NCBI GenBank assembly: GCA_963675595.2
Contig: CAXXLZ010000002.1
Coordinates: 4,666,253-4,730,252 of the forward strand
From: Thermodesulfobacteriota bacterium
Lineage (GTDB): Bacteria > Desulfobacterota > Desulfarculia > JACQYL01
Length of the DNA stretch: 64,000 nucleotides
Reading direction: 5' to 3'
This document shows positions 6,650 to 61,313 of the stretch, in pieces. Positions within the stretch are counted from its first letter, which is position 1. Every line of letters starts with the position of its first letter. The position numbers were made by a program, and so were the translations under genes. The notes beneath the pieces were generated by a model. It was given only the letters and a program-made list of their open reading frames with translations. It was not told where the DNA came from and made no database searches.

Positions 6650-6725
6650 TCCTCGGTAGCTCAATCGGCAGAGCGGGTGGCTGTTAACCACTAGGTTGCA
6701 GGTTCGAGTCCTGCCCGGGGAGCCA
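6650..6725 (+). tRNA. tRNA-Asn(GTT)
   Basis: 76 nt. Acceptor TCCTCGG/CCGGGGA, anticodon arm GGTGG-CTGTTAA-CCACT, GGTTCGAGTCC T-arm, encoded CCA. Confidence 0.97.
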
Positions 6726-8264
6726 GTTTTCAAAATGGCCTTTTTTCTTCGGAAATAAGGCCGTTTCTTTTTTGTGGGCCAAGTTGCTTTCAGCAAGAAT
6801 ATTAAATGGTTGCCTGTAGTTCGGGATGAGGTGTCCATCCTTCCAGATCGAGTTCGAACACACAAAATTGATGATGCGGCGTTTTTCCTGCGCCGTTTGT
6901 TTTTCATAAAGAACTACGGCACGTTGTGCAAGTTCGAGCAATTTGGACCCCTCATCCAAATATGAACGGTTGGCATTCTGGAGCTGTTCGATTCTTCGCA
7001 AGATTTCATCCTGCTCACTCTTCCAGACCGTACTTTTCCGGTCGTAAAAATCTTGATCGATTCTCCCATCGAGTTTGTCTTCGTACATGGCGTCCAGCCG
7101 GTGCTGCAATTTTTCATACTGGGTTTGAAGAGCCGTCATGCGGTCGGCGTGATACTTTCGGGTGTCTGCATGGCTCTCCTTGAGCGCAGCAATGACCCAC
7201 GTCATAACGTCATGATCCATTTTGATGGCGCCGATTGCCTGCCCGAATTGCCGAGCAATCTCTTCCTCCCGAACCCATTTCTCCGGGCACTTCCCCTTAT
7301 TGCCGGTACAGTGGTAATAAACATACTGCTTCTTCTTTATCTCGGCGACCAAGGCGCAGCCGCAGTGCCCGCACGACAACAAACCCTGGAAGGCCCAGCT
7401 GTGTTTTTGCCGGCCTGTTTTCCTGCGGCCTTTTTCGTCCATGACCGCCTGGACTCGCTCGAAAAGTTCCCTTGATACCAGGGGCTCGTGAATGCCCTTG
7501 TAAGTCTTGCCTGCCCAGCGAAACTCGCCGTAGTACAGGGAATTCTTCAGAATCTTGTGCACCACGCTCTTAGGGATCGCCCGGTTGCTTTTCCGAAAGG
7601 CAAACCCTTCATCCTGGGCTTTTCTGGTCAGTTCAAGTAAGGAATAGTTCCCGGTAGCGTACCATTCAAAAAGGCGTCGGACTTGGGGACCGACAACCGG
7701 GTCCGGTTGAATGATGCGTTTTCCATTACATTCAAGGTTGATGTATCCCAGAGGAGCGAAAGAGGGATAGATGCCTTGTTCCGCCTTTTCGACCATGCCT
7801 TTCTTGGTTTCTTCGGACAGGTTGTCGATGTAGTTCTTGGCCATCAATACCTTGATGCCGTGCATGAATTTTTCCGACGACCTGGATTCCTGGGAAAGAG
7901 TAACGTTTTCCTTCACGAAATGGATTTCAAGCTCAAGTTCGTCAAGCGTTACCCAGTCTTTGAGATTCCGGTACAGACGATCCGTTTTCTCTACGAGCAG
8001 GGTTCGGCAGGGAGAAGGGTGCTTGGATTTGGCCTCTTCCCGAAGAAACTTGATCATTTCGGAAAATCCCGACCTTCCCGCCTTCTTCGCAGTCTCCACA
8101 TCAACGTATTCCTGAACAACCTGGAGCCTGTTGTCGGCGGCGTAGTGGTTGAGCAATTTGAGCTGGGCCGGAATGGAGAAGCCTTCCTTTTCCTGCTCTT
8201 TGGAAGACACTCTGGCGTAAACTACGGCTCTTGGAACAGGGGGTGATTGCTGGTCGTTCTTCAT
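6684..8264 (-). CDS. Large serine recombinase (integrase)
   Basis: YARVSSKEQ catalytic Ser motif, EKTDRLYRN, PLGY, zinc ribbon CGHCG...YYHC...C and a coiled coil. The last codons (WLPGQDSNLQPSG) are read from the tRNA antisense strand. Confidence 0.95.
   Translation of the reverse strand: MKNDQQSPPVPRAVVYARVSSKEQEKEGFSIPAQLKLLNHYAADNRLQVVQEYVDVETAKKAGRSGFSEMIKFLREEAKSKHPSPCRTLLVEKTDRLYRNLKDWVTLDELELEIHFVKENVTLSQESRSSEKFMHGIKVLMAKNYIDNLSEETKKGMVEKAEQGIYPSFAPLGYINLECNGKRIIQPDPVVGPQVRRLFEWYATGNYSLLELTRKAQDEGFAFRKSNRAIPKSVVHKILKNSLYYGEFRWAGKTYKGIHEPLVSRELFERVQAVMDEKGRRKTGRQKHSWAFQGLLSCGHCGCALVAEIKKKQYVYYHCTGNKGKCPEKWVREEEIARQFGQAIGAIKMDHDVMTWVIAALKESHADTRKYHADRMTALQTQYEKLQHRLDAMYEDKLDGRIDQDFYDRKSTVWKSEQDEILRRIEQLQNANRSYLDEGSKLLELAQRAVVLYEKQTAQEKRRIINFVCSNSIWKDGHLIPNYRQPFNILAESNLAHKKETALFPKKKGHFENWLPGQDSNLQPSG
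6717..6725 (+). repeat. attL core (last 9 nt of tRNA-Asn)
   Basis: GGGGAGCCA, repeated at 61227-61235. Confidence 0.75.
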
Positions 8265-8285
8265 GGTGGTCGGGCCTCCAGGCCT

Positions 8286-8606
8286 TCAATCCGTTTTCAT
8301 TGGCTTGGCTGCGGCCAGCTTGATTTCATCGAGAACGGCTTGTTCTTTCTTCTTCGCTCTATACAGATCCCAGCGGGTCTGCAGGTTCATCCAGAAATCT
8401 TCGGGCACCCCAAAGAACTTGGCCAGGCGCAGGGACGTGCTGGGCGTCACTCCACGCTTGCCGTTAACAAGTTCGTTGACACGCTGGAACGGAACCAGGA
8501 TGCCGTCGGCAAGCTGCTGCTGCGTGATCCCCAAGGGCTGAAGAAAGCCTTCACGGAGCGTCTCTCCCGGATGGGTTGGCTTTTTGTCACTTGGGGTTGT
8601 CGCCAT
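8286..8606 (-). CDS. higA: HigA-family antitoxin / XRE HTH regulator (no adjacent HigB seen)
   Basis: PTHPGETLREGFLQPLGITQQQLA...RVNELVNGKRGVTPSTSLRLAKFFG...FWMNLQ. Confidence 0.85.
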   Translation of the reverse strand: MATTPSDKKPTHPGETLREGFLQPLGITQQQLADGILVPFQRVNELVNGKRGVTPSTSLRLAKFFGVPEDFWMNLQTRWDLYRAKKKEQAVLDEIKLAAAKPMKTD

Positions 8607-8737
8607 TTTGTCCCCTCGGCAGGAATGAGTTGTTTCGTACTTCGATGCTATCACGCTATCACGGTGTCTGTGCTATTGCAAGGCCAAGAGTTATCACGTT
8701 TCGCCAGGCGAAACCGTTTTTTCAAAAACAAACCCAA

Positions 8738-9610
8738 TCATCCTTCCTTAGTGGGCAGGTCCAGGAAATCGTCGGCGCTTTCGCCGCTTCTTGCCCGGCT
8801 GTCCTGCAAGGCCTTCAAGGCGGCGAGGTTGCGGAAGATGGACCGTTCCAAAGAGTTCTCGTACTTGATGACGTTATTCAAATCGGGCGCTGCAGGCAGC
8901 GACTTGGCCTTCCGGATTCGGTCGAATTTCACCTGCCAAGTTCTGACTTCCTCCATCTCGGCGAGCACCCGCTCTTCCTCTTCCAACCTCTCCTTGCGCA
9001 GTTTGCCCTGCATCTGAGGGGACAAGGAGGCCACGTACTTTTGGGCGGCTTCGTAATCCTTTTCGGCAAACTCGGCTTCTTCCATGTTTATTCGGAACCA
9101 GAGGACATATTCCAAGGTTGCTTTGTCTTTTGACAGATCAAAGCCTGAACTCCGCATCTCGGCCACTTTGCAGCACTGCGCCCGATACTCTGCATCTGTG
9201 ATTTCGTCGTCGTAGCCATAATACTGCAATTCAGGCCGTTGCCGGGAAAAATAGGAGTTGCTGTAGTATGACCGGAGGGCGGTTTCCCGGAAATCATCCA
9301 GCCGCTCTCGGATCTCTCCGGTTTCATGTCGAAGCAACCGCCTCAACCGCCAGTAATTGACGGCAATCTTCTCCACAAGTATCGTCTCCATACGGCCAAC
9401 CGGGGCGAGGTCCTTTTTTAGATCGGCAAATAGTTCGTAGTATTCCAATTCATCTTCACGACCGTCGCCGACGTTGATTACCATATCCTTGGCGAAGATA
9501 CCGTGCTTCACCGCGTTTCTGGAAACGATGGCTTTTCCTTCCGCCGAGGTGGGACCGGTCGACAATTGCGCATTCCGAGCATTCGCCGATTCCTGTTTTT
9601 CTGAAGCCAT
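8738..9610 (-). CDS. Hypothetical protein (NAxxSTGPxxxxGKxxxxxNAxKHG N-terminal motif)
   Basis: 290-aa ORF with an AGGAGG RBS and a helical, charged sequence. Confidence 0.75.
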   Translation of the reverse strand: MASEKQESANARNAQLSTGPTSAEGKAIVSRNAVKHGIFAKDMVINVGDGREDELEYYELFADLKKDLAPVGRMETILVEKIAVNYWRLRRLLRHETGEIRERLDDFRETALRSYYSNSYFSRQRPELQYYGYDDEITDAEYRAQCCKVAEMRSSGFDLSKDKATLEYVLWFRINMEEAEFAEKDYEAAQKYVASLSPQMQGKLRKERLEEEERVLAEMEEVRTWQVKFDRIRKAKSLPAAPDLNNVIKYENSLERSIFRNLAALKALQDSRARSGESADDFLDLPTKEG

Positions 9611-9884
9611 TGCGGTTCCTCCTTGAACATGTCTGTAAATGATCTTTAGTGTTCGACTCGACTAAAGCCTCCGCCATACACGCGTTCCCTCCCAAATTTC
9701 TTCAGAATCGTTCGATGAACGTATCATATAACCATTTGGAAACACTATATAAACCCCGATATTGCATCGTGTTGCGCACGTCCTTGCGTTGCGCAGAATA
9801 GGCCTGTTTTTGTTGCGAATGTTCGGACCGAAACGGGGTTTCTTCACAATATCCTCGGTAATTTTTAATGCATTTCCGAGCACA

Positions 9885-11999
9885 TCACGCCTCCTGGTTG
9901 CGGGTTTCATGGCCATTCATGAGTTCGTCCAAACCAGCAATCCACCGTTCCAGCTCTTCACCGTCTCCATCCTTGTTCCAACAGTCGGGTCTGGCGATAT
10001 TGACCTCCACCTGGGGTCTGAGCACGGGGAAGTATTCCTGCAGGGTGTCGCACATGACTCTTGAGGTAAGGGCGGCGACGTTTTCCAGAGCGCTGAACGG
10101 CGCTTCAAAAATGAAAGCGTCGTGCAGGGGAATGATGATCCGGGCATCGTACTGCCTGTAAAGTCTGTCTAGCCGATTGCCTGCAGCCTTGAACACCACG
10201 GCGGCGCTTCCCTGTACGGGGTGGTTGGTCAGCCAGTTCTTCTCCCATCGAGTGGCCTCGCCGGTCTTTGCCCGATATCGTTTCAAGCCGCTGATGGTGT
10301 AGGCATACCCTCTGATCGCCCCACAATGCGACGCCAGGGCCAGGGCTTCCTGCAACTTGGGAAACATGGCCATGAACCGATTCTGCAAAGCCGCCGCCTT
10401 GCCCTTGGAGGTCCCCAGGGTCTGGGCGAGGCCGACCGGAGTTATGCCGTAAATGATCCCCAGAGTGCATGATTTCATCTGATTCCGAAGAGCCTTGTGC
10501 TTTGCCTTGAACTCCTTGCCGGAAATGTTGATATCTTCTTCCGGCAGCTCATCTCGGAAAAAATGCTGGGCCATGGAGGAATAGACATCGCCGGAATTGA
10601 ACATCCCGACCAGCGCGTCATCGCCATACATGGCGGCAGCTACCCCAACCTCAACTTGGCTCCAGTCCACTTCACCGATGCCGTAGCCTTCCGCCGGAAC
10701 AACAAGGGGCCGGAGCACCCGGTCCAGTCCAAGGAAATTCGGCCAACGGCTTGTCTGCCTGCCGGTGTCCGTGCCAAGCTGCCGATGCTCCGCCCGGACG
10801 CGGCCGTCCGCACCGACAAAATCAGGCGACAGAAGTTTGTCCCCCAGCAGGTCGGCGGCCCTTCTTGCCGCTCTCAGCAGGGTGATAGCCGGGTGCAGGT
10901 CCGCATTCTTCTTCAGCGCCTTCTTGTCAAATCTCACTTTTCCACCCAGCAAAAACCTGTGCAGAAGGCCGCACCCCTGGAAGAATTCGGCCAGCTGTTT
11001 GTGGCTCTGTGTATTCCGGATGCCGTATTCAGCGGCCAGGTGCCTTTCGAGCTTCTCCAGATGCATACCGATTCTGGGGATGGCCTCATCCCGCTTTCGC
11101 TCATCCACCCGTACCCCGTTCCACTCAATACGGGCGTTGGTGACCACCCAATCCATCTCCACGGTTTCGCAATGACGTACCAAGCCGTGCTGCAAAGCCT
11201 TTTGGAGCTGAAAAGGATAGAGCAAACCCGCAGCGACGGCGTCTTCGGCGGCATATTCGATCTGCTCCTCAGAAAACCGGGCTTCCGCAGGATGGTTCAA
11301 GAAGGATAGTTGGAGCCTTTCCTTTTCCGCTGCCATGCGATAAGCTACTCCGTAGCGTTGGCAGGTCGCCACGAGGGAGAACCCATGCACTTTGTCTTCG
11401 TCGCTTTCCTCCTTGGCCGGAATCCGCTCAAGTTCGTCCGCTTTTCCTTGTATTTTGTATCTGTGATGGTGCAGGCCTAAATGCAGGAGTTTCTCGAAGA
11501 TGAACGTATCCCAGAGTATATGCGGCTCTTGAAGGCCGAGCCGCCACAGGCAGAAAAGTTCAACCTTGACGAAATGACCGACAAAGGGAAGAGGTAGTCG
11601 AAACAGCTCGCTCAGGACCGGCGATAATTCAGGTTTTCGCAGATCAACGACAAAATTGTAGAGATAACCTTCTCCATCATCGGACGGCTCCGCCATGGCC
11701 AGAGACAGGAGAAGCGGCCGTATGCTGCGCGGGTCGTAGACGGTGTTTCTTCTGTCGATCTTGACCCCCGGTCGGTCATACCCAAACTCGGTATCAAAAC
11801 CGATATGAGAAAGCGGCCGCTGCAGGGCAAAATCGACCATGGCCCGGGCATCAGCAATTGCTTCGATGAAATGGGTCTTCTTTGCATAATACCGAGGCGA
11901 TTTCCTTAGGCCATAGGATATCCGGCCGGCTGCCGGTTTCTGCTCCGCGTCCTGAACTCGCTCTTTCCAGATTGGTAGAAGTTCCATCGGGCTCACCAT
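9885..11999 (-). CDS. Family A DNA polymerase with N-terminal 3'-5' exonuclease (no 5' nuclease domain)
   Basis: Exonuclease motifs GFDTE and YAAEDA. Polymerase motifs TDTGRQTS, DWSQVE (A), RNQMKSCTLGIIYG (B), NHPVQGSAA and LHDA (C). Confidence 0.9.
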   Translation of the reverse strand: MVSPMELLPIWKERVQDAEQKPAAGRISYGLRKSPRYYAKKTHFIEAIADARAMVDFALQRPLSHIGFDTEFGYDRPGVKIDRRNTVYDPRSIRPLLLSLAMAEPSDDGEGYLYNFVVDLRKPELSPVLSELFRLPLPFVGHFVKVELFCLWRLGLQEPHILWDTFIFEKLLHLGLHHHRYKIQGKADELERIPAKEESDEDKVHGFSLVATCQRYGVAYRMAAEKERLQLSFLNHPAEARFSEEQIEYAAEDAVAAGLLYPFQLQKALQHGLVRHCETVEMDWVVTNARIEWNGVRVDERKRDEAIPRIGMHLEKLERHLAAEYGIRNTQSHKQLAEFFQGCGLLHRFLLGGKVRFDKKALKKNADLHPAITLLRAARRAADLLGDKLLSPDFVGADGRVRAEHRQLGTDTGRQTSRWPNFLGLDRVLRPLVVPAEGYGIGEVDWSQVEVGVAAAMYGDDALVGMFNSGDVYSSMAQHFFRDELPEEDINISGKEFKAKHKALRNQMKSCTLGIIYGITPVGLAQTLGTSKGKAAALQNRFMAMFPKLQEALALASHCGAIRGYAYTISGLKRYRAKTGEATRWEKNWLTNHPVQGSAAVVFKAAGNRLDRLYRQYDARIIIPLHDAFIFEAPFSALENVAALTSRVMCDTLQEYFPVLRPQVEVNIARPDCWNKDGDGEELERWIAGLDELMNGHETRNQEA

Positions 12000-12002
12000 A
12001 AA

Positions 12003-12056
12003 AAAGGTGCCGGCTTCCCTTATAAAGAATTACCTATAAGGGGTGGTGGCACCTTT
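12003..12056. other. Nested inverted repeat, candidate replication origin or operator
   Basis: AAAGGTGCC-N5-CCCTTATA-N10-TATAAGGG-N5-GGCACCTTT, overlapping the stop codon of the helicase-HTH gene. Confidence 0.55.
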
Positions 12057-13858
12057 GGATTCCAGTATCGTTTGATCGTCCTTGTGCTTACCCCCAACAG
12101 GGCGGCGGCTTCACGCTGCTTCAACCCTTCGCTTCTGGCCTCCATAATCTGGGTGTGCAGTTCCGCCGTCCGTGCGGACCTTCTGCCGAGGATGCCGAAA
12201 TAGTCTCGTGCCTCGCCGATACTGTTGAACTCCCGCGTATAGGCGAGGTCCGGATGATCGGCGCACTGAAAGGTAATGACCTCCCTCGGCTTGGTGTAAG
12301 GCCGCACCCTACCCACCGCCTGGAGCACGGTATCCATTTCCTGGTGGTTCAGGGCATGTTGCGCCAGAGTGTGCAGATCATAGATGCGGTCCCCCTTGTT
12401 CCGGACCCCGGCCCGTCGCCTGCACGGCCTGCCTTCAATGGAGATTTTCAGCGGCAGGTTCATATCGGAACCAAGGATATCCTGAAGAATACCGTTAATG
12501 GCTTCTTCAGTGACGTAATAGCCGGTGAGGCAATACGCGCAGTCGAAATCCTCGAAGAGGTTGGTGCCGATCATGCCGTAGTGGATGAGTGGCAACACTT
12601 TGGCGTCCCGCAACAGCTCGGTCTGCCGGCCGTTGATGACCACTCGCACTTCGACGCCCAGCGCCCGGAGCCGCTCTTCCATCTGGCGGGCGCAGAACGC
12701 GCAGAAACATTTCTTGGCCAGCAGCAAGGGGCGCTTTCCCTCGCGGAGCCTCTTGGCGACCAGACCAGCAAAGAAGTCCAGAATCTGGCCGGAGTTCTTC
12801 TTGAAATACTTTCGCGCCCCCAGCCGGCATGCGATGTTGAACCACCGGGTCTCAGCGTGGCTGAAAGAATAGTCCTCAAAGGGGCTGGCGAATTCCGTAC
12901 CCAGCCGGTAGGTCGTGAATTCCTGGTGAGCCGTGCCGCTGTAAATGATGAAATCCGTGGAGACGCCGGGCACGGCGGCAAAAAGGATATCGCCGTTGGC
13001 CGATCGCTCCCTGGATTCCAGCGGGGAGCGGCCGAAATGGATCAAATCAAAGCCAAGGAAAGAAAAGGCTTCGCCGTACAGACTGAATCCGCGAGTCTGC
13101 ACGGCGAGCGACCAATCATGATGGATTTGAGGAAAGCACCAGTCGTGAATGCGCAAATCGCTGGTTCCGGCGACAAGAAGCAAGTCACAGAGATACAGCC
13201 AACGCGCATGGAGTTTCCGCCGGCTTCGCGGGTTCATCTTGCTCAGGACATCAACAAAAGCCCGCAGCCGCACGCGGTCGATTGTGCGCCGAAAGGGTTT
13301 CATGATGCAATTGGCCTCGTCGAGAATGACCAGAACTCGCTCCGCTCCAGCCCACTGGGCAAGTTGATCCAGGAAATAGGGGGACCTTTCCAGGTGGGCC
13401 TGGGTGCCGAAGACTGCTTTGGCGCCTTTGATCGACCGGCCGAATTGCCGGGGCCATGCACACTCTGGCCGCAGAAGGCACTGGCCGCACAACTCGGTGC
13501 GGCCGAGAGCTCCCAAGCCGTTTCGCTCAAACACCTGCCAGTGGCGGTTCATGTCGGCACCGCATCGATTCCCGGGTCGTGGTTTCAAATTGACCAGTTT
13601 GATTCCCGTCGGCGGGCGCTGCACCCATTTCCGCTCTTCGATGACTTGCCGGGTGGGGAAAAGGGCGATAACGAGGTCGTAGAGTTCGGAGGCAACCGCT
13701 TCCTCGATGGTCAGGTCGATGTTGTGGCTTTTCCCTACTCCCACGGCCCAATCAACCCGTAACCGCCCGTTATGCTCCGCCAGAAGTTCCAGCATCCGCT
13801 TTCCGTCCCAGTGCCGCCGAAAGGCGGCCAGCTCATCAGGACCGCTGATCACCGGCAT
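12020..13858 (-). CDS. Divergent SF2-helicase-like protein with C-terminal HTH (putative replication initiator)
   Basis: Walker A-like AVGVGKS, LFPTR, Walker B ILDEA, SGT, motif VI-like QAVGRVR and a Cys cluster. C-terminal GLKQREAAALLGVSTRTIKRYW. Confidence 0.65.
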   Translation of the reverse strand: MPVISGPDELAAFRRHWDGKRMLELLAEHNGRLRVDWAVGVGKSHNIDLTIEEAVASELYDLVIALFPTRQVIEERKWVQRPPTGIKLVNLKPRPGNRCGADMNRHWQVFERNGLGALGRTELCGQCLLRPECAWPRQFGRSIKGAKAVFGTQAHLERSPYFLDQLAQWAGAERVLVILDEANCIMKPFRRTIDRVRLRAFVDVLSKMNPRSRRKLHARWLYLCDLLLVAGTSDLRIHDWCFPQIHHDWSLAVQTRGFSLYGEAFSFLGFDLIHFGRSPLESRERSANGDILFAAVPGVSTDFIIYSGTAHQEFTTYRLGTEFASPFEDYSFSHAETRWFNIACRLGARKYFKKNSGQILDFFAGLVAKRLREGKRPLLLAKKCFCAFCARQMEERLRALGVEVRVVINGRQTELLRDAKVLPLIHYGMIGTNLFEDFDCAYCLTGYYVTEEAINGILQDILGSDMNLPLKISIEGRPCRRRAGVRNKGDRIYDLHTLAQHALNHQEMDTVLQAVGRVRPYTKPREVITFQCADHPDLAYTREFNSIGEARDYFGILGRRSARTAELHTQIMEARSEGLKQREAAALLGVSTRTIKRYWNPKVPPPLIGNSL

Positions 13859-14519: not shown

Positions 14520-14609
14520 AAAATGTGTTTGATCTGATTGGTTCCGTCTGCTCTATCTCCTCTGGTGGAGCCCGGCCCAAGGGTGACGGGGAGGGTACTG
14601 GTAGAGGAT

Positions 14610-15047: not shown

Positions 15048-15049
15048 AA

Positions 15050-20570: not shown

Positions 20571-20573
20571 TCT

Positions 20574-28800: not shown

Positions 28801-29236
28801 TGGTGTCCTCGGGCGGGGGCGCTTGATAGGCTGGCTGGTCTTCGGGACGGCCGCCGCCATACGCGGCAAAGTACCACCAGCCCAGTTCCCAGGCTTCGCG
28901 GAGGCTGCCAAGGGCTGTCTCACTGTCAATCCGATCACCGTGTGCCGCCTTGTTGCCGTCGAGACGGATCTGGTGCAGCTTGTCCAGCACCACCTTGGGC
29001 ACGGTGTCCTTGAAGGACTCTTCACCGAGCAGATCGAAGAGGTTGCGTTGATAGGGCAGGGCGAGGTTATGGATCCGGTAGATCCCTTCCACCAAGTGTT
29101 CGGTGAAGGTTCGGAGCTTGATGAGTGCACTTGAGGGGTCGGCGTGGGCGTACCGTTCGGCGAAACCACCCAGGATAGCCAACTCCGGCCACTGCTCCCG
29201 AAGCATCTCAAAATTTATCGAATCCATGATTTCCAT
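25865..29236 (-). CDS. hsdR: Type I R-M restriction subunit (EcoKI/EcoEI-like)
   Basis: ADYVL...IEAK nuclease, ATGTGKT, DESHR, TATP and QMIGRGTR. Confidence 0.95.
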
Positions 29237-51293: not shown

Positions 51294-54200
51294 CTAGGGA
51301 CCTACTTCGACCAGAAGACCTGAAATCGGATAATGAATGTAACAGGCAATGTCGGCGTTACCGTTCAGGCTTTGTAGAATGTCCCGATAAGCCTTAAGCT
51401 GGCCGAAGAATTCGGCAGCTTTGATTGCAGCGTCATTCTTGTTGCCGGCAAACGCTTTGTGATCGATCACGGCTATCCTGTTTCCGGCGTTGAGCAGGAG
51501 ATCGCAGAATCCCAATACAACAGTGCCTTCAGGCAGACGTTGGATAAGGGGCCACTCCCTGCGCCATACAGCCTCGGGGTATTCCTGATTGGCCCAGATA
51601 GCCAGGTTGTCTGCGGATTCGACAATATCCGAGCCGGTTACAGCACCGGTGACTTGCAGACGCTTTATGATTCCCTCAGCCAGGGCCATTCGCTGCCTCA
51701 ATTCATATTGCGGACGATCGGCGGCAAAGAAGTAGTGAAAGGCGTTCCCGACCGATTCCATGTCCGGATTTCCTGAAGTGGGAATTCTACGACCGATCTG
51801 AATCAGTTGACCCGCTTTGCCTTGGGCGTCCATGGATGACGGGCTGAGCCTTGAGGGAAACTGAGTCCGAATTCTCTTGGGAATCGGGTAATCTCCTCCT
51901 TGAGCAATTGATCGGGTTTCAGGTTCAACAGGATCAAGCATGCGGGTACGTATTTCCAGTTCCTGTCCGGCCCACACGGCCTTGCCGTCTTTGGGCTCTG
52001 AAAGCAGCCACGTGCCCTTTTCGTCGGTCAACAGCCCAAGGATACCTTCCCTGAAGTGCTCATTACGTCCCGCCAGGATCAAACGATCCCTTCCACGGGT
52101 CCACGCCACATAAAGGAGCCGAAGTTCCTGCCTCTGGTGACTGTCTATGATTCCCGGCATTGAAGCATCTTCTTCCATTCGGCAGTTAAAGGGCGTCTCC
52201 TTGTTTTTTGGATGGTAAGGAAACAACCAGTAACGAAGCCAACGATCAGCCAATGGATTGTTGATGTCGAATTTCGTCCAGTCGCTTATGACCTTTACTC
52301 CGAGAGGGTCCGGCTCGAACTTCTTTCCGATTTGAGTCAGAATTGTAACCGGCCATTCCAAACCCTTGGCGCTGTGCAGGGTCACCACGTTAACCGCGTC
52401 CTCAACGACCAGCTGTGCCTGCGAATCTTCTTCGTTGGCAGCCAGTTCATTGAGATACCCGAGCAGTCCCGCAGGCGTGCAACCGATCCCCTCGGCGGCC
52501 GAATAGGCGATGTAGCTTCGGGCATGGGCCGATAGCGCATCCAGATTTGCCAGCCTTTTGGGCGCATCACCCCAAGCGAGACATAGTTCACGAATATCGA
52601 TGATCCTGTAGACGGCATCGAGTACCTGAAGAACGCCGCTATCGGGTTTCTCCCGGGCGGAATCCACAATTTTCCCGGCTTCGGGCAGCTGCCCAAATGC
52701 CTCTGCTCCCGGCTTTTCGAGCAACTGCTTCAACCACTCATCGGATTTATCCGGGTAGTGAATGATCCGCGCCAATTCGGCGGCTGCAAGGGTATCCTTC
52801 GGATCGACCCACAACCGCAGACCCGTTTGCACGGTCATCGCTTCCGGCGTTTTCATGAGTCCCGCTTTGGGAAGCACCGCCCGGATGTTAATGGATTCGA
52901 GCGCTTCGGCCATTTTTGCGCAAGCGTCGTTGGTTCGGCAGAGGATGCCGATATCTCCGTGCCTTATCCGTCTTGTTTTCCCTTCTTTTTTGTCTCTGAC
53001 CTTTACTTCATCGTCGCGGAGAAGATCACGAACTCCGCCTGCAACGGCCGATGCGTCCTCAGACTGATTCTTTGAGGCGGTTTCCCACCATTCGATACAA
53101 GGACCCAACTCAGGATCATCCGATTCCAAGGCGGGCTCCAACATTACCCGTTCTTCAGGGATGCCGTGTGATGCAAAGGCACGGGCAAAAACCGCCGAAC
53201 TGATGAGTACAAGGGGCGGTCGGCTTCGCCATGACTTGTTCAAGGTTTCCGGAGCATGATCCTGAAAGATGTGCTGAATACACGAATCCATCAGGGCCGG
53301 ATCCGTCCCGCGAAAACCATAGACCGACTGCTTCTGGTCTCCGACCCAGATCGTCTTCTTGGCCAGTGACGCCAAACGTAGAAGGATAGCCAACTGGATT
53401 GGACTTGTATCCTGAAACTCATCCACGAGAAGCAAATCTATGGCGTCGCTCAACCGGTCCACGACTTCCTTTTCGTGGAGAAGCTCAAGTGCCAGAACTT
53501 CCTGATCGGAGAAATCCATGACACCCCAAAGTCGTTTATGCTCCTGATAGGATTTGAGGGCGGCGATGCCCGTGTCGAAAACGAGCTCGACGGCGTCGGT
53601 CAGATCCTTCCTGAGATTTGGGTGGTTGTCGTGAAGCGCCGCCACCTGTCGAAGTTGCTCCGCATGAACCACTGATTTCTTGCCTACCTTAATGCGATCC
53701 AATCGCAACCAGTCGCTCCAGGGGAGAGGCCGTCCCTCGCGAAGCCTGCTCAAACAGGCCTCAGCCTTCTGAACCGCCCCTGCGGTACCACCGGTCTGGT
53801 CTTCCTCCAAGTCGACACTGCGGATGAAATCAGAAAGAGCCGTCTGGAGTTCGCCGTCAAGATCTCGGTCGGGACCCAAGGGCTTGCCGATCAATTGGCT
53901 TATGCTTCTGATGCTTTTCTGCTTGGATGCTTTTAGGTCGGTTTCCTTCAGTCCGTTGTACCCGGCGAATTGAATCAGAGACTCCACAACGCCGGTCCAC
54001 TCAAAGGCTTCGAGTCTGCTGGAGAGTTCCGTCATGCGGGCCGAAACACCGCCTTTTACAACAGAGGAAAGAGCGCGCCTGAGCTCCCGGCTTGCGGCCT
54101 TTTCGTCCAAGACAACGGTCTCGGCAAAGAGCCCTTTCTCAAAGACGAAATTCATCACCAGTCCGCTGCAGACGGCGTTGACCGTTCCCATGCGTGCGGC

Positions 54201-54413
54201 CCCCAATCGGTTGGCCTCCACTATGAGCCCTTCTCGGATAAGCCTACGGCGCACGCGTTCCTGTAGTTCGGCTGCCGCCTTCTTCGTAAAGGTCGTGGCA
54301 ATCACCGCTTCCGGCCGCACGCTCCCGGAAGCAATGCTTTGATGAAGAAGCGTTGCCAGGCGATAGGTCTTGCCGCTGCCCGCACTGGCGGTGATGATAT
54401 GGATGTTGGTCAT
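51294..54413 (-). CDS. AddA-like UvrD/SF1A helicase-nuclease
   Basis: ASAGSGKT, TFTKKAA, VDEFQD, VGDQKQS, TLHSAKGLE and YVAWTR. C-terminal DLL...IDHK...QLKAY nuclease. Confidence 0.9.
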   Translation of the reverse strand: MTNIHIITASAGSGKTYRLATLLHQSIASGSVRPEAVIATTFTKKAAAELQERVRRRLIREGLIVEANRLGAARMGTVNAVCSGLVMNFVFEKGLFAETVVLDEKAASRELRRALSSVVKGGVSARMTELSSRLEAFEWTGVVESLIQFAGYNGLKETDLKASKQKSIRSISQLIGKPLGPDRDLDGELQTALSDFIRSVDLEEDQTGGTAGAVQKAEACLSRLREGRPLPWSDWLRLDRIKVGKKSVVHAEQLRQVAALHDNHPNLRKDLTDAVELVFDTGIAALKSYQEHKRLWGVMDFSDQEVLALELLHEKEVVDRLSDAIDLLLVDEFQDTSPIQLAILLRLASLAKKTIWVGDQKQSVYGFRGTDPALMDSCIQHIFQDHAPETLNKSWRSRPPLVLISSAVFARAFASHGIPEERVMLEPALESDDPELGPCIEWWETASKNQSEDASAVAGGVRDLLRDDEVKVRDKKEGKTRRIRHGDIGILCRTNDACAKMAEALESINIRAVLPKAGLMKTPEAMTVQTGLRLWVDPKDTLAAAELARIIHYPDKSDEWLKQLLEKPGAEAFGQLPEAGKIVDSAREKPDSGVLQVLDAVYRIIDIRELCLAWGDAPKRLANLDALSAHARSYIAYSAAEGIGCTPAGLLGYLNELAANEEDSQAQLVVEDAVNVVTLHSAKGLEWPVTILTQIGKKFEPDPLGVKVISDWTKFDINNPLADRWLRYWLFPYHPKNKETPFNCRMEEDASMPGIIDSHQRQELRLLYVAWTRGRDRLILAGRNEHFREGILGLLTDEKGTWLLSEPKDGKAVWAGQELEIRTRMLDPVEPETRSIAQGGDYPIPKRIRTQFPSRLSPSSMDAQGKAGQLIQIGRRIPTSGNPDMESVGNAFHYFFAADRPQYELRQRMALAEGIIKRLQVTGAVTGSDIVESADNLAIWANQEYPEAVWRREWPLIQRLPEGTVVLGFCDLLLNAGNRIAVIDHKAFAGNKNDAAIKAAEFFGQLKAYRDILQSLNGNADIACYIHYPISGLLVEVGP

Positions 54414-54483
54414 GATCATCAGTACCTTATAAACGGTTCGCTCTTTGACGCTTAGCCGGGAAAGGAAGAAATTCTCACCAGCA

Positions 54484-57057
54484 CTATTCGCTGAAGGCCC
54501 GACCACAAAGAATCGTGAAATCGCAGAATTCGCAGGGTTTCAGAAAAAGTCGTCCATCGTCGAGTTGACTCTTTGGAGGGCCGTCGGGATCGTTCCCCGG
54601 AGCCCATACTTTTCCAGCCGTCATTTCATCCCAAATCCGATTAAAGGACTCCTGAGCACCCTTCCAAGTCTCCTCGGGTGAAGGACCTCCAATGATCCGT
54701 GCGTCCGGAAAGGTCTTGGGGTCCACCGTGATCACCTGACCCGATTTGAGCATCAAATAGGCAACAGGCGGAAAGACTGTATTTTCGTTCTTCCGAATCA
54801 AGTGACCGTATACGGCTAATTGGAGGCTTGTGCCGCCTGCCAGCTCTTCCTTGCGATAATTGAATCCGCCTCGCTTGAAATCGACGATTGCGTCCGGGTT
54901 CTTCAGTACCAAGTCGGGTCGGCCTTCAATCTCTATTCCCAGGGAACGGGATTTCGTCGCGTAGGTCTGTTCCACGGCTCGTACGGTGAATCTTCCTTCC
55001 TTGATCAAACGAAATACTCGATGAGCGGCTGTGCGGAGAGCCATTTTCACCTCCGCTCGAATATCTTCATAGCCGGGCAAGAAGAGTTGAGCGGCCATGA
55101 GCGGTCCTTCCGAACCAAAACGCAGGGTTGCATCATCGGCAGCTTCTTTGGGGGTTTGGCCGGGATTGGAAAGGACGCGGGTGAGTATCTCATGTATGAG
55201 CCGGCCTTGCAATTTTTCGGGCGAATCCAAAGTGGCCGTGGCCCCGCCATATAGGTTGCCCAAATAGCGAACGACCCAACTGAACGGGCAGGAAATCAGA
55301 CTCGAAAGACTGTTGGGTGACTCCTTCGGTCTCTTGGCCACGGCACCCGCAATAACGCCCCATTCAAATACGGGCTCGGGAAGGCTCCTGATCGGCCGAA
55401 TCGTCCTGGTAAGCCCGTTATGGGAAATCAGGAATTCACGCTCCAATTCCTTCAAACCCGTGGATTCCTCGACCCGACCGGCAAGCTCGTCCCACAATGG
55501 GTGCGGATATTGCTCTTCACCGTCGGGGCCTTGCCGAGCACAGACGAGAATCAGATTTGAACCCGCCATCATGAGAGGCCGTTGCCATCTCTCCGCGGCC
55601 CACACGGCTTCATCACCCGGGCGAGGGAGTACAACACCTACTTGCTCAAGCCCTGAACGTTCCTTGGCGGTAAGCATGTCGGAAGCTATGACCGGCGCGG
55701 CGCCCCGATTGAACGACCACCAAATCACATTCTGCGCTTTTTCAGCGATGCACTCCGGCGCCCCAACGGTTTCCAAACCTGCTTGGGCCTCGTAAAGAGG
55801 AAAAGAGCCCGCCGCCTCGTTGATCTCATAAAGCATTCGGCGTATCTGTGGAGCAGTGAAGTGAGAAAGGCCCGATAGCTCGGCAATGCGCATGCAGTTC
55901 TCCAACTGAGCGATCAGAGCCTGCCATGCACGTTCCGACGCATCCTCCCCCATCCTGCCTTTGGCCCAGGATCGGAGAAGATCGATCCGAGCCTTGATCT
56001 CGGTCACCGGATAATTCCGGCTTTGGATGCGCTTCGCAAATATGGCATCCATTCGGTCTTTCAAGCGTTTCCGATCTTTCTTGTCTGAGAACTCGCTCAG
56101 ACCTTCTTCCAGTGCTTCATTCCAGGCATCCGATCCCACCGCGGGATAATCCTGCAGCGCATGAGCCAACCTGCGACCGATCCCTTTGGGAACGGGGCTG
56201 TTGGGCAACATCAGGAGTTCGAGAGCCCGCTGAGGATCGGGCGGATCCCAGGCCATGGCCAGAGTCAGGGGAAGAATCTGAAGCAAGGCATGATCGGATG
56301 CTGGAATGCCTGCGCCCGTTGTGGGCAGATCAAATCGATGGAGCGCCTCGTCGAGCACGCTGTCGGGGCCGATAATGACTGTGCGTTCCAGTGACTCAAG
56401 ATTGGAGAGCCAAGCGGCTAGTTCGTGGGCGGCCATGCTGTGCGTGGCGGGCCGCAACAACTGAAGGGATCCGTCCCCTGTGGGTTTGAAGGGTGCTGTT
56501 CTGCATGCGCCTAAGTCGCACTTTGGTGAGGCCGGTTCCAAGGTTTTCTCGATGACTTTGGTCCCCATCCGCTCAAGAGCCTGCACAGCTGTCCGCAATG
56601 CGGGATTCAGACGACCAACCGGAACCAGAAGAGTGAGTTCCTCAATCACATTGGCGGCATCCTGCATGGTTCCGGCTACTTCAAGAAACCGATCGGGAAA
56701 ACCGGGCGAGGCCTTGGAGGTAACCTCCGCCAATTGCTCCAGCCGCAGGCTGACCGGTTGGCCGCGCCAACCTTGTGTCCACAGAAAATCACGCCACTTC
56801 AAAAGTCTCCTTGCCGTTCCGAAAGGGTCCACCTGAGCGGAGTTCTCCCAGAATCCCTTAACTCTTCGGACTTGCGAAACCAATTCGGCAGCCCTGACTG
56901 CGGGAGGCAGGGTGGGGCCGGCCAGACCGGTCATGGTCTCAAGGATGCTCAAAAGGCCGGAGGGCCCTAACCAGATTTCACCGGATGCGGCGTGGCCTTG
57001 TGCGATTGGGACGGGCCAAAAACCTTGATCAAAAGCAGGGTCGAAGGTGATTCTCAT
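54484..57057 (-). CDS. AddB-like PD-(D/E)XK nuclease with Fe-S cysteines
   Basis: SCPF...GRPDL...VDFK...QLAVY...CEFCDFTILC. Confidence 0.85.
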   Translation of the reverse strand: MRITFDPAFDQGFWPVPIAQGHAASGEIWLGPSGLLSILETMTGLAGPTLPPAVRAAELVSQVRRVKGFWENSAQVDPFGTARRLLKWRDFLWTQGWRGQPVSLRLEQLAEVTSKASPGFPDRFLEVAGTMQDAANVIEELTLLVPVGRLNPALRTAVQALERMGTKVIEKTLEPASPKCDLGACRTAPFKPTGDGSLQLLRPATHSMAAHELAAWLSNLESLERTVIIGPDSVLDEALHRFDLPTTGAGIPASDHALLQILPLTLAMAWDPPDPQRALELLMLPNSPVPKGIGRRLAHALQDYPAVGSDAWNEALEEGLSEFSDKKDRKRLKDRMDAIFAKRIQSRNYPVTEIKARIDLLRSWAKGRMGEDASERAWQALIAQLENCMRIAELSGLSHFTAPQIRRMLYEINEAAGSFPLYEAQAGLETVGAPECIAEKAQNVIWWSFNRGAAPVIASDMLTAKERSGLEQVGVVLPRPGDEAVWAAERWQRPLMMAGSNLILVCARQGPDGEEQYPHPLWDELAGRVEESTGLKELEREFLISHNGLTRTIRPIRSLPEPVFEWGVIAGAVAKRPKESPNSLSSLISCPFSWVVRYLGNLYGGATATLDSPEKLQGRLIHEILTRVLSNPGQTPKEAADDATLRFGSEGPLMAAQLFLPGYEDIRAEVKMALRTAAHRVFRLIKEGRFTVRAVEQTYATKSRSLGIEIEGRPDLVLKNPDAIVDFKRGGFNYRKEELAGGTSLQLAVYGHLIRKNENTVFPPVAYLMLKSGQVITVDPKTFPDARIIGGPSPEETWKGAQESFNRIWDEMTAGKVWAPGNDPDGPPKSQLDDGRLFLKPCEFCDFTILCGRAFSE

Positions 57058-58045
57058 ATCGCGCCTCAGCAGCAGGTGATGGTCTTCTTGCATAGATGAT
57101 ATATATGTTGAGCTACTTTTAGTAGTTATTGCTTTAGCATTCCAATGTAATTATTTTGTAGGAAGAGGGGCGATTCGTATATTCAAGGTATATTTTCCAA
57201 AGTTCCTGTAAATATAATGGATATATCATATAGAGTATCTCTATCTTTTATACGATATGAGATACTCATTGATTTCTATACGTTCTTCGCCATAGGCGGA
57301 CAGCACTAAAATTAGTGAAACTAATGATATAAAAGGCTTTAGGTTAAATACCATCTTCCCGTCTCGCTTTACCTACTGCAGTCTTGCATCTTAGGATTGG
57401 GAATGGGCGGAACAGCAAAATTGAAGCTGTTCAATCACGGCACACGACGCCGAAGATGATACGGCGTCCATAGGTGCGTTTTGAATATAGGCCCCCCCCG
57501 GGGGCTCCTTTGGGGGGTGGGGTGACACTATACCCCCCCTTGCCTCGTTTAGCACTTCATAATCCACATCTGTCAAACCATCGCTTTCATGGCGAGCCCT
57601 GTTCGTTCGATGGGATTGAGGTCCGGTGAGTAGGGGGTAAAAAGAAAGGCTCCCATCCACGCCGCTGGATGGACCGTTTTCGATGCCGCTCGGCGTTGTC
57701 CGGAACCTGAACCTCGAAAAGCTTATCCAAGACCTGTCGGAAACCTGTGGAGTTGAGGCTTCCGAAATCCGGGGGCCACAAGGAAGTGCTTGGGGCACGC
57801 ACCCTTTGCCCTGGGGCCAAGTTTGATTTGGATGCGTTTCGGTTGGGTCCGGGGTCGGCCCTGGACCTTTTGCATAGTCCGAGAAGAAGCGCCGCCGCCG
57901 CTTTCGAGTCCGAAGACCTACTTGCCGCGGCGGGCTTGGGGGTTATTTGTCCGGCCACGGGCCGGCGCAGGTGTGAGGGTCTGGTCAACACCTGTGCACA
58001 GGAGCGCAATCCTTGAACGGCGCTCTTCGGGCGAAGGGTGGTGAA

Positions 58046-58408: not shown

Positions 58409-58443
58409 TCCCCGGCAAGGAAAACCGCAAAGGGTAAAAGGGA

Positions 58444-60546
58444 TCAGGGGTAAGACCTCAGCAGACGCGCGCCGAGGCCGTCGAAGCTGTTGACCGGCGT
58501 GTTGCCGCTGCGATCCGCCGAACGGCAGTACCTCGCGATGCAGATCCAGCCGCCGCCGCGAAGCACCCGGAGCGAGCCTGAGGACGGACCCGTGGGATCC
58601 GTTACGGACCCACTCGGATAGTCGCCATACCAGTCTTGGCACCACTCCCACACGTTCCCGTGCATATCATGCAATCCCCAGGCGTTGGCCGACAGGCTGC
58701 CCGTCCGAACCGTCATTTTCCGGTATTCACCTTTTGAACAGCCCGACAACGGGTAGTTTCCGTTATAATTCGCCTCGTCGGTGGATAGACAGTCTCCGAA
58801 AGCGAACGGGGTGGTGGTGCCGGCCCGCGCCGCATACTCCCATTCCGCTTCCGTGGGGAGCCGATACCGATCCCCTCCCGCCAACCGATTGAGCTTCTGA
58901 ATGAACGACTGACAGTCGTTCCAGGAAATGTTCTCCACGGGGCAGTCGTCTCCACAATTCTTGAAATTGGACGGATTGCTCCCCATGACGGCCTTCCACT
59001 GCCCCTGCGTGACCTCCGTGGTCTGAAGGTAGTATCCTTGGGTGAGCGTCACCTGGTGCTGCGTCTCATTGCTGCTTCGGCCCGGCTCGTTGCTCGGGCT
59101 TCCCATGGTAAACGTGCCGGGAGGAACATACGCGAATTTGAACTCCTCTCCGGCAATCCGATCCACAAGGGTTTTCCCCGTATTTCCCGCGGACGGCACC
59201 GGCTTGGGGGGAACGGGCGTCAACGACGCCCGCACGTTGGCTTCTTCTCCCACACGCACGCTGACGGTCTCTTCCCAATCCCGGTGTTCCTCCAGCTTCA
59301 ACGCCACCTTGTGGCTCCCGGCGGCCACCTCGCTCATGGCTCCGGGAGTCGTCCCCACATACGCGCCGTCCAGGTACCAGCGGGCACCGGACGGATCACT
59401 GGTCACACGCAGGGTGCCCGTGGTGGGAACGGGTTCCAGCAGCAAGGTCACCCTGGTCTCCTTGCCCGCCTGAATCCAGACGCTTTCCTTGCCGTACTTG
59501 TAACCTTCGAGGTTCGCCAGTACTTCCACTCTGCCGGGACTCAAATCCGAAAGCGAAACGGGCGACGCGCCCACCCGGCCGCCGTTTACATAAACCAGCG
59601 CTCCCCGGGGGCTCGTTTCCACGTACAGGGAACCGGTGAGCGGTTCGGACGCCGACGGCGGGGCGGGCTGCGTGATCACCGCGCTCCCTCCCGCCATGAA
59701 CACGAAGTCCCCCTGGTCCAGCTTCGGGTCTCGAATCTTTCCGTACTGGGGGTGTTGGGCCGGGTTGTATTCCGGCACCTTGTTCTTGAGGAACAGCCCC
59801 AATTCTTCACCCGTGATGTAACCGTCGGGGATGGGTTCCGGCTCCCTGCCTTCCAGCAGGTTCAGGAACGCCTGCTTGAATACGCTGTGGTCGGGCACCG
59901 GTTCATTGGCTCGACCGGCCGTGATGAACTGCCGCACCGGATACTTGACGTTGTCCGACACCGTTTGAGGAACCACTCGCTCCCGCAGGTTCAGAATGGA
60001 CCCCGAAAAGCAGCTGTCGAACATGAACAGCGCGTGCTTGGCGTTCATGATGCGGGCCTCGGTCACCATGGACTGCATGTCCACGCTCGCCAGCCGAAAA
60101 CCCACCGGGTCTCTTTCCGGGGCCGGGGCGTCCACCATGACCAGGAAGCCCAGTTCCTCATCGGTGGACAGTTTCTGCGTGTACCCGTGCCCGGCATAGT
60201 AGAACAGCAGGCGGTTGTCGGGCTCCGCACCGAATTTCGTGGAAAATTCGCTCAAGGCCGTGTTGAAGGCGCTTTTGGTCAGGTCCTTCTTCAGGGTGAC
60301 GCTGAAACCGTTCCGTTTCAAGGCCGCGGCCACGTCGTCGGCGTCCTGCAAAGCTCCCGGCAACGGGTCCCAGCCTTTGGTGTAGCGGCCGTTGCCGATG
60401 ACCAGGGCGTAGGAATCTTCGTACAGTCGGAAAGGTTCGCCCTGTTGCGGGCGAAGAGTCACGCCGATGCCGCGTTCGGCGCCCGAAACCTGAAACGCCG
60501 CCAACGTCGCCAACAAAAGGAGATACAAGGGCAGGGATCGCTTCAT
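58444..60546 (-). CDS. DGR target: signal peptide, caspase-like (peptidase C14) domain, 2x PEGA, FGE-sulfatase (C-type lectin fold) domain
   Basis: YALVIGN...YYAGHG...FDSCFSG dyad. PEGA units ETSPRGALVYVNG and TSDPSGARWYLDG. FTMGS, RLPTEAEWEYAAR and DMHGNVWEWC. Confidence 0.92.
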   Translation of the reverse strand: MKRSLPLYLLLLATLAAFQVSGAERGIGVTLRPQQGEPFRLYEDSYALVIGNGRYTKGWDPLPGALQDADDVAAALKRNGFSVTLKKDLTKSAFNTALSEFSTKFGAEPDNRLLFYYAGHGYTQKLSTDEELGFLVMVDAPAPERDPVGFRLASVDMQSMVTEARIMNAKHALFMFDSCFSGSILNLRERVVPQTVSDNVKYPVRQFITAGRANEPVPDHSVFKQAFLNLLEGREPEPIPDGYITGEELGLFLKNKVPEYNPAQHPQYGKIRDPKLDQGDFVFMAGGSAVITQPAPPSASEPLTGSLYVETSPRGALVYVNGGRVGASPVSLSDLSPGRVEVLANLEGYKYGKESVWIQAGKETRVTLLLEPVPTTGTLRVTSDPSGARWYLDGAYVGTTPGAMSEVAAGSHKVALKLEEHRDWEETVSVRVGEEANVRASLTPVPPKPVPSAGNTGKTLVDRIAGEEFKFAYVPPGTFTMGSPSNEPGRSSNETQHQVTLTQGYYLQTTEVTQGQWKAVMGSNPSNFKNCGDDCPVENISWNDCQSFIQKLNRLAGGDRYRLPTEAEWEYAARAGTTTPFAFGDCLSTDEANYNGNYPLSGCSKGEYRKMTVRTGSLSANAWGLHDMHGNVWEWCQDWYGDYPSGSVTDPTGPSSGSLRVLRGGGWICIARYCRSADRSGNTPVNSFDGLGARLLRSYP
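58457..58581 (-). repeat. DGR variable repeat (VR) in the target 3' end
   Basis: Encodes SGSLRVLRGGGWICIARYCRSADRSGNTPVNSFDGLGARLL. Confidence 0.93.
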
Positions 60547-60777
60547 GGGGGCCTCGCCTAACGTCGGTTGGCCGAAAGGGTCTTTGAATCTCTTTCAGCA
60601 AGGTCAATGGAAAAACGAGGATGGTTTCAGCTGAATGCGTTACAGATAAAACAGCCGGAACGCCACAAGTCAAGAGGCAAGATGCGGACTCAATAGGGTT
60701 CGACGCAGTTTGGCTGCAGTTCAAGCGCCTCCCCGTCGGATAAAACCGTGACTGCCGCCAAGTTACAAGGAAGACGT

Positions 60778-61110
60778 TTAAGCCGAACCGAGACCCCCTT
60801 TTCCCGAAAGATTCTTCCACGTGGGTTCGGTCGACAGCACGTCGGAAACGATCCCCGAGGGGGCCGTTTCAACTTCGGCCAAACGGACCGGCAGGAGGGC
60901 GAGCCAACAAAGGGTGACACGGCTTCGGATCCGCTCGTCTTTTCGGTGATACACGGGGCGGAGTTCAAGGTTCGACTTGAGTGTCCGGAAGGCCCGTTCC
61001 ACCTCGACGAGCTGCTTGTAACCCAGGGCAATCTCTTCAGAGGTGAGGGTGTCGTCGCCGCAGGTGAGCACGGAGTTGCCGTCGACCTTCTCCTCAGCCG
61101 TTACTTTCAG
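60778..61110 (-). pseudogene. IS1634-family transposase C-terminal remnant
   Basis: EEKVDGNSVL...IALGYKQLVEVERAFRTLKSNLELRPVYHRKDERIRS, homologous to the C-terminus of 61652-63150. Confidence 0.8.
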
Positions 61111-61226
61111 GCTCACCACAGCCCGGCAACCGTAAAGCCGTCCTTTACCTGATTCTGCGCCACCAGGATGGTGTCGAGCACCTCCTTCGACGGCTCGACA
61201 AACCGGTTTCGAAGCGCGTCCACCAA

Positions 61227-61235
61227 GGGGAGCCA
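61227..61235 (+). repeat. attR core
   Basis: GGGGAGCCA. The upstream GTCC is in the same register as in the tRNA (GTCCtgcccGGGGAGCCA versus GTCCaccaaGGGGAGCCA). Confidence 0.72.
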
Positions 61236-61274
61236 AAAAAATCCTGGGCGAACCCATGCCCGGTTCGGTTTACA

Positions 61275-61313
61275 GGAAGCCCCATCGGATACCCCGGTGG
61301 GGCTTCCGTTTTT
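61275..61313 (+). terminator. Rho-independent terminator, probably the original tRNA-Asn terminator
   Basis: GGAAGCCCCATCGG-ATACC-CCGGTGGGGCTTCC-GTTTTT, about 40 bp after attR. Confidence 0.75.

Follow-up and report, generated by a model that had tools for sequence, protein, structure and literature searches.

What becomes of an integrase gene when the attachment site used by its element lies inside the reading frame of that gene? The question is raised by a 64,000-nucleotide stretch of a Thermodesulfobacteriota bacterium (assembly GCA_963675595.2, contig CAXXLZ010000002.1, positions 4,666,253 to 4,730,252), the whole of which is called the window here. It makes up the final 64 kb of C2, one of the three contigs of the assembly. 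It holds a 54,510-bp island inserted at the CCA end of a tRNA-Asn gene, with its attachment (att) core inside its own large serine recombinase (LSR) gene. The explanation that we consider best, and hold as a whole at a probability of about 85%, is that of an island at tRNA-Asn whose LSR open reading frame (ORF) spans the att core, with the P' half-site lying in a tail stored at the far end and with a tail peptide under selection. In the chromosome, the ORF ends after the residues W-L-P with 10 tRNA-antisense residues, its other 37 codons lying 54.5 kb away; on excision the ends would rejoin and the circle would encode a 553-aa enzyme. As a weaker inference, the rest of the tail would be a translated peptide kept by selection, so that the enzyme would differ between its free and inserted states.

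Island ends and the two forms of the recombinase

An intact tRNA-Asn(GTT) gene was called by ARAGORN at 6650-6725 on the plus strand. Its last nine nucleotides (tRNA positions 68-76, window 6717-6725) form the attL core GGGGAGCCA, which reads TGG CTC CCC (W-L-P) on the minus strand and constitutes the 9-bp identity block between attL and attR. The 9-mer occurs exactly twice in the window. The second copy, the attR core, lies at 61227-61235 and is the left limit of a 100% match to the empty site described below, and GTCC is found 9 nt before the core at both island ends. The recombinase ORF (6684-8264, minus strand) converges on tRNA-Asn and encodes 526 aa with the C-terminus ENWLPGQDSNLQPSG. 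Its last residues, WLP-GQDSNLQPSG, derive from tRNA-Asn antisense, where 10 codons and the stop are found: TGG corresponds to CCA, DSN to the T-loop, and the stop TAA falls within the anticodon loop.

On the minus strand at the second core copy, WLP continues in frame as LVDALRNRFVEPSKEVLDTILVAQNQVKDGFTVAGLW up to a stop codon at 61113-61115. This stored tail of the free-form recombinase (61113-61226, minus strand), with 37 codons after WLP and the stop, aligns with 16 other tails. When the island ends were joined in a script, the distance between the two cores was 54,510 bp and one continuous ORF of 553 aa resulted. The first-pass annotation of this DNA, made from its letters and ORFs, had described the in-frame recurrence of the 9-mer with a tail reading on to a stop, the GTCC register common to both ends, the 526-aa and 553-aa forms and the size of the island; all of these were confirmed.

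The empty site

The first-pass annotation had predicted that an unoccupied site would show tRNA-CCA followed by AAAAAATCCTGGGCG and a terminator. Such a site was found on a second contig (C1) of the same assembly, where the tRNA-Asn CCA is followed by AAAAAATCCTGGGCG and then by the terminator, with nothing between. The tRNA-Asn is the same at the empty site (L002:1434-1509). C1 positions 18801-25527 of this genome (G000) match window positions 1-6725 at 99.1% identity, and the match stops exactly at the tRNA CCA. On the other side, C1:25519-25788 matches 61227-61496 at 100%, the 261 bases after the core copy corresponding to 61236-61496. The first 25.5 kb of C1 are 99.2-99.6% identical to C2:4649351-4672977, save for an extra 1.9-kb segment in C1, an insertion sequence (IS) absent from C2. 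The two contigs thus overlap over about 25 kb, one copy with the island and one without, which seems to reflect two strains or a large diverged duplication.

Logan contigs from runs X1 and X2, both of one sample, contain a piece spanning attR (60654-61256), another piece that joins the tRNA 3' letters to 61227 onward, and the C1-type continuation after 61496. Since the unoccupied allele is present in the same sample, the island is polymorphic. Run X3 spans only parts of the stretch (13 of 30 bins). One X2 contig follows the right end of the island to 61235 and then runs into sequence absent from the assembly; its 30-letter loose end at 61236 had no match in the genome. Another X2 contig joins foreign sequence to 61205 onward. 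Their source may be a related element, or else a strain in the same community that has this element inserted elsewhere. Among 61 related genomes (G000 included), a recombinase match at E ≤1e-50 was found in three, and no useful empty site was retrieved.

To the right of the island, at a distance of 40 bp from the second core copy, a 14-pair hairpin runs into GTTTTT (61275-61307). The first reading of the sequence had taken it for the displaced terminator of the tRNA, which fits: at the empty site it sits straight after the tRNA. The feature at 61275-61313 (plus strand) is therefore the original intrinsic terminator of tRNA-Asn, displaced by the island. A second hairpin, with a UUCG loop and a U-run (6735-6773, plus strand; fold -16.9 kcal/mol, z -2.67), lies just past the tRNA inside the recombinase coding region, on the antisense of the recombinase codons KKETALFPKKKGHF. 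Among 59 relatives, 12 have a terminator-like site behind the tRNA; in control windows the count was 17 of 590. It is likely that the hairpin at 6735-6773 is a replacement terminator brought by the island for the tRNA.

The recombinase

The integrated form of the enzyme contains Resolvase, Recombinase and Zn_ribbon_recom domains: the catalytic domain PF00239 (E 2.9e-23), the Recombinase domain PF07508 (E 4.7e-15) and the zinc ribbon PF13408 (E 6.2e-10). In an alignment of 27 sequences (A1), R18, V19 and S20 of the Arg-x-Ser motif are invariant, as are the zinc-ribbon cysteines C298, C301, C319 and C326. By these features the enzyme is a large serine recombinase with putative attP x attB catalysis. 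Its best NCBIfam match is CcrB, with 88.6 bits, far below the 900-bit cut-off. No close relative was retrieved from plasmid and phage records, in which the best matches were at most 31% identical (three plasmid and two phage records). An AlphaFold2 model of a relative that is 67% identical (P0035) places coiled-coil helices at 351-455, between the ribbon strands, with a predicted local distance difference test (pLDDT) score of at least 90 in most blocks. A complex prediction of the recombinase body (residues 1-513) with the 40-aa tail scored 0.38, against 0.70 for one control, and weighs neither way on binding.

The same layout in relatives

A protein search with the recombinase returned 6,935 matches. 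We examined the 120 best, which are 59-86% identical and include the protein of the window itself (P0001). In 93 of these, WLx is followed by a tRNA-antisense tail. Eleven end at most three residues past WLx, ten have no WL near the end, and six have other tails; among these six, P0035 (553 aa), P0064 and P0074 have long, uninterrupted tails that resemble the one stored in the window. We additionally inspected 80 related loci, drawn from species-representative genomes of many phyla. The recombinase ORF enters the 3' end of an opposite-strand tRNA gene in 59 of them, with an in-frame TGG on CCA. The remaining loci overlap the tRNA in another register (4), stop just before it (2), lie at a contig edge (5) or have no tRNA called there (10). 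Over the 59 loci and the four in the other register, the target tRNAs are Asn (34), Gln (18) and Ser (6), with one each of Arg, Ala, Pro, Glu and Met.

Across the family, the far end of the island stores a tail of 31-40 aa. A profile of these tails detected far-end copies in three 10-kb flanks, and a six-frame search with it gave a match at E ≤0.01 in 12 of 20 whole genomes. According to coordinates and contig numbers, in six of those 12 the tail is on the same contig and strand as the recombinase, 16-57 kb upstream of it. For the collection of species-representative genomes, we put the number of stored stretches at about 1,400. Identity blocks of 6-12 bp were found in all eight attL/attR pairs compared, with TGGCT in every one; two further pairs were left out, the recombinase end being frameshifted or unclear. 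The exchange point must fall within the shared TGGCT. Dyad symmetry was tried as a means of placing the central dinucleotide and gave no consistent centre in the eight attB and eight attP sites (10-14 of 30 matches, scattered), and for this reason a GGTTCG...CGAACC pair seen by eye in the window's attB was left unused. The left half-sites likewise have no clear dyad symmetry.

The claim of the first-pass annotation that the att core lies inside the recombinase ORF, and that integration exchanges the C-terminus, is thus borne out by the empty site, the ORFs of 553 and 526 aa, the 59 related loci and the uninterrupted P0035. Judged from sequence comparison, this architecture is established for the island and for a very large clade.

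At two loci, tail-like coding sequence that lacks an intact WLP immediately precedes the start of the recombinase: L031:1699-1758 (TLRNKMTEPS) and L036:552-722 (FVEHFRNKPFAPS). They may represent mini-elements of about 1.7 kb that consist of the recombinase alone, or islands stripped of all their cargo. In another genome, a good tail match (WVPFLDTYRT...AAAA; L095, G063:C1:5031789-5031872) lies 1.55 Mb from the recombinase locus L043, on the opposite strand. A second element, an orphan attR or a rearrangement may account for it.

A probable stretched T-arm copy in the P' arm

The B arm, which is tRNA antisense, and the P' arm, made of the first tail codons, were compared across the eight attL/attR pairs. 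In the window, the tail codons contain a mimic of the tRNA T-arm (61206-61223, minus strand), composed of GTGGAC (61218-61223), 4 nt and TTCGAAAC (61206-61213), in which the T-loop block is 5 bp further out than in the tRNA. The same displacement was recovered from the whole set: the T-loop block (TCGAACC) aligns best in P' at a shift of +5 (49 of 64 positions, vs 5-33 at 18 other shifts), and the inner block (index 9-17) aligns best unshifted (31 of 72 positions, vs 9-24 at other shifts). For serine integrases, the zinc-ribbon motif is placed at half-site positions 16-24 in attP and 11-19 in attB, as set out in the available sections of PMC3783163. The +5 shift of the T-loop block equals this published rule, by which the zinc-ribbon domain of LSRs tells attP from attB. 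We infer that the first 10 or so tail codons double as the P' half-site, a copy of the tRNA T-arm with its TCGAAC block moved 5 bp outward. The enzyme appears to recognise tRNA genes through their T-arm DNA, attP bearing the stretched copy.

Coding signal in the rest of the tail

Tail codons 11-27 sit 33-81 bp from the core, beyond the 25-bp half-site of LSRs. They were compared among 15 tails, with the near-duplicate L105 dropped. Mean pairwise differences at codon positions 1, 2 and 3 are 0.57, 0.41 and 0.68, respectively. Of the 105 pairs, 69 have a finite synonymous rate (dS), and in 56 of these 69 the nonsynonymous rate (dN) is the lower of the two. All 16 tails examined have Pro15, its third position being free (2.00/2.00/0.41 bits), and 12 of 15 tails are 31-36 aa long. 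As far as these comparisons indicate, the tail is a peptide and a DNA site in different parts, codons 11-27 being coding-like and codons 1-10 a DNA site.

The tail ends were scored in 19 tails, namely that of the window, 15 genome tails and three database proteins. Alanine is the last residue in seven of them (VTA, VYA, SAA, LAA twice, AAA and LVA). Of 28 more distant loci on viral contigs, 16 were classed on visual inspection as uninterrupted forms of the free type, and alanine is the last residue in 12 of the 16 (FAA, LVA three times, KAA, AAA, KCA three times, LCA twice and VWA). LVA and LAA ends work as degradation tags. The Ala and Ala-Ala ends of the relatives' tails recall ssrA-like tags.

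Weighing the explanations

Several observations weigh against an island with a selected, stored tail, and they are taken up here with the rival readings that they favour. The two 9-mers could be a chance pair, with the true ends elsewhere and the tail an accidental frame or part of a transposase remnant. The pair is not significant alone (0.71 matches expected, at least two in 17 of 100 shuffles), which upholds the caution of the first-pass annotation that a 9-mer could arise by chance, and an orphan, 5'-truncated remnant of an IS4-type transposase, located with tblastn at 60895-61107 (minus strand), starts 6 nt past the tail stop. We give this reading almost no credence: the empty site joins exactly at the 9-mer, which refutes a chance pair and lifts the match above chance, and related islands have far-end tails with which that of the window aligns. 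When the tail was tried as part of the remnant, tblastn with the transposases of the window IS and the C1 IS aligned 60895-61107 only, and no transposase similarity at E <0.01 was found within 61113-61235. A mis-assembly of C1 as the source of the empty site is spoken against by the junction-carrying contigs of X1 and X2. Over 23.6 kb, 131 substitutions and 18 gaps do separate the occupied copy from the empty one, which makes C1 a second strain or a paralogue rather than the excised state of the same molecule. The circle junction with attP was not seen in the Logan contigs either; these drop rare forms, so that this is no evidence of absence. It would suit a fixed relic, in which the recombinase and att sites are intact and the element is immobile, for example with its tail damaged by an IS or its excision factor missing. 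An IS remnant inside the right end, two IS copies just outside it, and a tail of 40 aa vs 31-36 aa in most relatives point the same way. Such immobility is nevertheless unlikely, given a full-length ORF with all invariant residues, cores that are identical at both ends, P' motifs that are present, and an unoccupied allele in the same sample, which makes the island polymorphic.

Alternatively, the tail could be a by-product of where attP happens to lie, in codons of a disordered and dispensable C-terminal extension, the two forms of the enzyme being alike and its state unsensed. The DNA half-site accounts for the first 10 tail codons, which keep their third positions across 16 tails (codon 8, for example, at 2.00 bits). 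What reads as the peptide motif F-[LV]-D-[AT]-[YF]-R-T is therefore for the most part the DNA motif CTGGAC-N5-TCGAAC, and on this comparison the conservation of these codons is a DNA constraint, not one of protein function. In the model of P0035 the tail has a pLDDT of about 30, tails of this type being present in only three of 40 alignment rows. Integrated forms stop from 1 to more than 25 residues past WLx, at positions set only by the tRNA sequence, and the recombinase body therefore tolerates any ending. The window's own tail, 40 aa long and ending in ...TVAGLW, has no special or degron-like end; its last residues may have been changed by the IS remnant beyond its stop. Over codons 11-27 the median dN/dS is only 0.61, with dS saturated, and most tails were found by a protein profile, which biases the set toward conserved peptides. 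We take this reading seriously and lean against it: beyond the reach of the half-site, codons 11-27 vary most at third and least at second positions, Pro15 is invariant with its third position free, the stop falls at 31-36 codons in most tails, and Ala ends are common in distant clades.

The first-pass annotation had suggested that the tail swap may control directionality or stability in place of a recombination directionality factor. Returning to an island with a half-site and a selected peptide in its stored tail, we slightly favour the view that the difference between free and inserted enzyme matters functionally. If so, the likeliest effect would be proteolytic instability of the free form, followed by an effect on the direction of recombination. 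A more specific proposal makes the stored tail, with its roughly 30 residues, a built-in state sensor, the free form being marked for ClpXP-type proteolysis or a coiled-coil switch being modulated, and integration removing the tail. Loss of the tail would then yield a stable or differently directed enzyme. We put this proposal forward tentatively and think it rather improbable in that specific form.

Island contents and flanks

Next to the recombinase lies a module on the minus strand (8286-13858), annotated with Pfam and NCBIfam. It encodes a HigA-like helix-turn-helix protein (8286-8654), a 290-aa protein (8738-9610), a family A DNA polymerase (9885-11999) and a 612-aa protein (12020-13858); neither the second nor the last of these four matched a Pfam or NCBIfam family above threshold. 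The module is common, whole or in part, to the closest related loci (L014, L015, L017 and L018). This conserved polymerase module suggests a self-replicating integrative element.

The rest of the island (13859-60546) is cargo, in which a Pfam scan found mostly defence-type genes. These include GmrSD (18762-20570), an AAA_15/DUF3696 ATPase (21482-23125), the hsdS/M/R genes of a type I restriction-modification system (23125-29236), an RtcR-like sigma-54 activator (29267-31069), McrBC (31254-34573), WYL regulators, and a UvrD-type helicase with a PD-(D/E)XK nuclease (51294-57093). The McrBC pair is a block of 35-36% G+C in an island of about 50-59% G+C and was perhaps acquired more recently. The intact gene nearest the right end (58444-60546, minus strand) encodes a 700-aa protein with a caspase domain (Peptidase_C14), PEGA repeats, an FGE-sulfatase domain and a signal-like N-terminus.

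Two IS copies lie outside the island (61497-64000), where the empty site has unique sequence instead. The first (61497-63151) is of IS4 type and has 12 full-length copies elsewhere on C2 among the matches listed, 95-100% identical. An IS3-type element follows and runs to the contig end; it has many copies on C1 and C2. Because the contig ends inside this element, the chromosome past the right flank of the island is unjoined in the assembly.

Significance

Large DNA is inserted mainly with serine integrases, and control of their direction normally needs a separate factor. For most of them we know of no such factor. The family described here is a large natural clade that is predicted to target tRNA 3' ends via T-arm DNA, with attP in its own gene and with two state-dependent protein forms. 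If the tail affects stability or direction, it would provide a compact, portable switch. Should the state-sensor proposal be true, a very large clade would control integration and excision by gene structure, instead of or besides a recombination directionality factor. Even without an effect of the tail, the attB sites are predictable, tRNA genes being everywhere, and one stretch of DNA would serve as both half-site and coding sequence. These loci correct an older claim, found in the available text of PMC4383910, that tRNA genes are not targets of serine integrases.

Comparison with known systems

The idea that a tail swap may control directionality or stability is not new in print. In the accessible part of McMurdie 2011, it is raised for DsiB, a serine enzyme of Dehalococcoides at ssrA, whose full function would perhaps be attained only on the circularised element (PMC3146451). 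DsiB, which is CcrB-like, resembles the window enzyme in being a serine recombinase of about 540 aa adjoining attL (PMC3146451); the match of the window enzyme to the CcrB family is far below the cut-off. DsiB differs in its target, the tmRNA gene (ssrA), with a 20-bp repeat and an inferred insertion point in the T-loop, whereas here the target is tRNA-Asn and the repeat 9 bp (PMC3146451). It is also accompanied by a small second serine recombinase, DsiA (PMC3146451), whereas here the next genes encode the HigA-family helix-turn-helix protein and then the 290-aa protein. In the same available text, the overlapping part of DsiB is called divergent, and neither a conserved stored tail nor a shifted T-arm mimic is described (PMC3146451). 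Our literature search found no paper on a conserved stored tail or a shifted T-arm mimic in tRNA-targeting serine integrases. In Mesorhizobium, integrative and mobilisable elements are reported beside tRNA-Asn and some elements carry serine recombinases, the two not being linked in the available text (PMC8627217). The accessible part of a preprint on tycheposons gives a large serine recombinase in 27 of 937 elements.

The phage enzymes of Listeria (A118/LI), phiC31 and Bxb1 share with the window enzyme the order of catalytic domain, recombinase domain and zinc ribbon with coiled coil (PMC3783163). Phage LSRs also share short att sites, a small identity core and a zinc-ribbon motif placed 5 bp further out in attP (PMC3783163). 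They differ in that, in the available sections of that source, attP is not described as lying within the reading frame of the integrase, and tRNA genes are not among their targets (PMC3783163).

In the Mx8 IntP/IntX and SSV integrases, the ORF extends across attP, and integration alters the gene (Mx8, at a tRNA gene) or splits it (SSV), according to the available text of PMC4383910. As in the window, the integrated ORF crosses the att core into the target; its remainder is found at the opposite end of the element, and in the free form the two parts are continuous. These are tyrosine recombinases with long tRNA-derived cores and another chemistry, in contrast to the serine recombinase and the core of 6-12 bp found here. 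Mx8 targets tRNA-Asp.

For the functional side, the integration-dependent immunity of mycobacteriophage BPs and its relatives offers a close parallel, as far as the available text of PMC4557955 goes. Their attP lies inside the repressor gene, and integration removes about 33 C-terminal residues with an ssrA-like tag; the free form of the repressor is unstable and the integrated form stable, and the integrase also has a C-terminal proteolysis signal (PMC4557955). In the present family a degron is hinted at by the Ala or Ala-Ala ends of the relatives' tails, though not in the window, whose tail ends in GLW. In BPs the split gene is that of the repressor and the integrase is of the tyrosine type (PMC4557955), whereas in the island at tRNA-Asn it is the integrase itself that is split.

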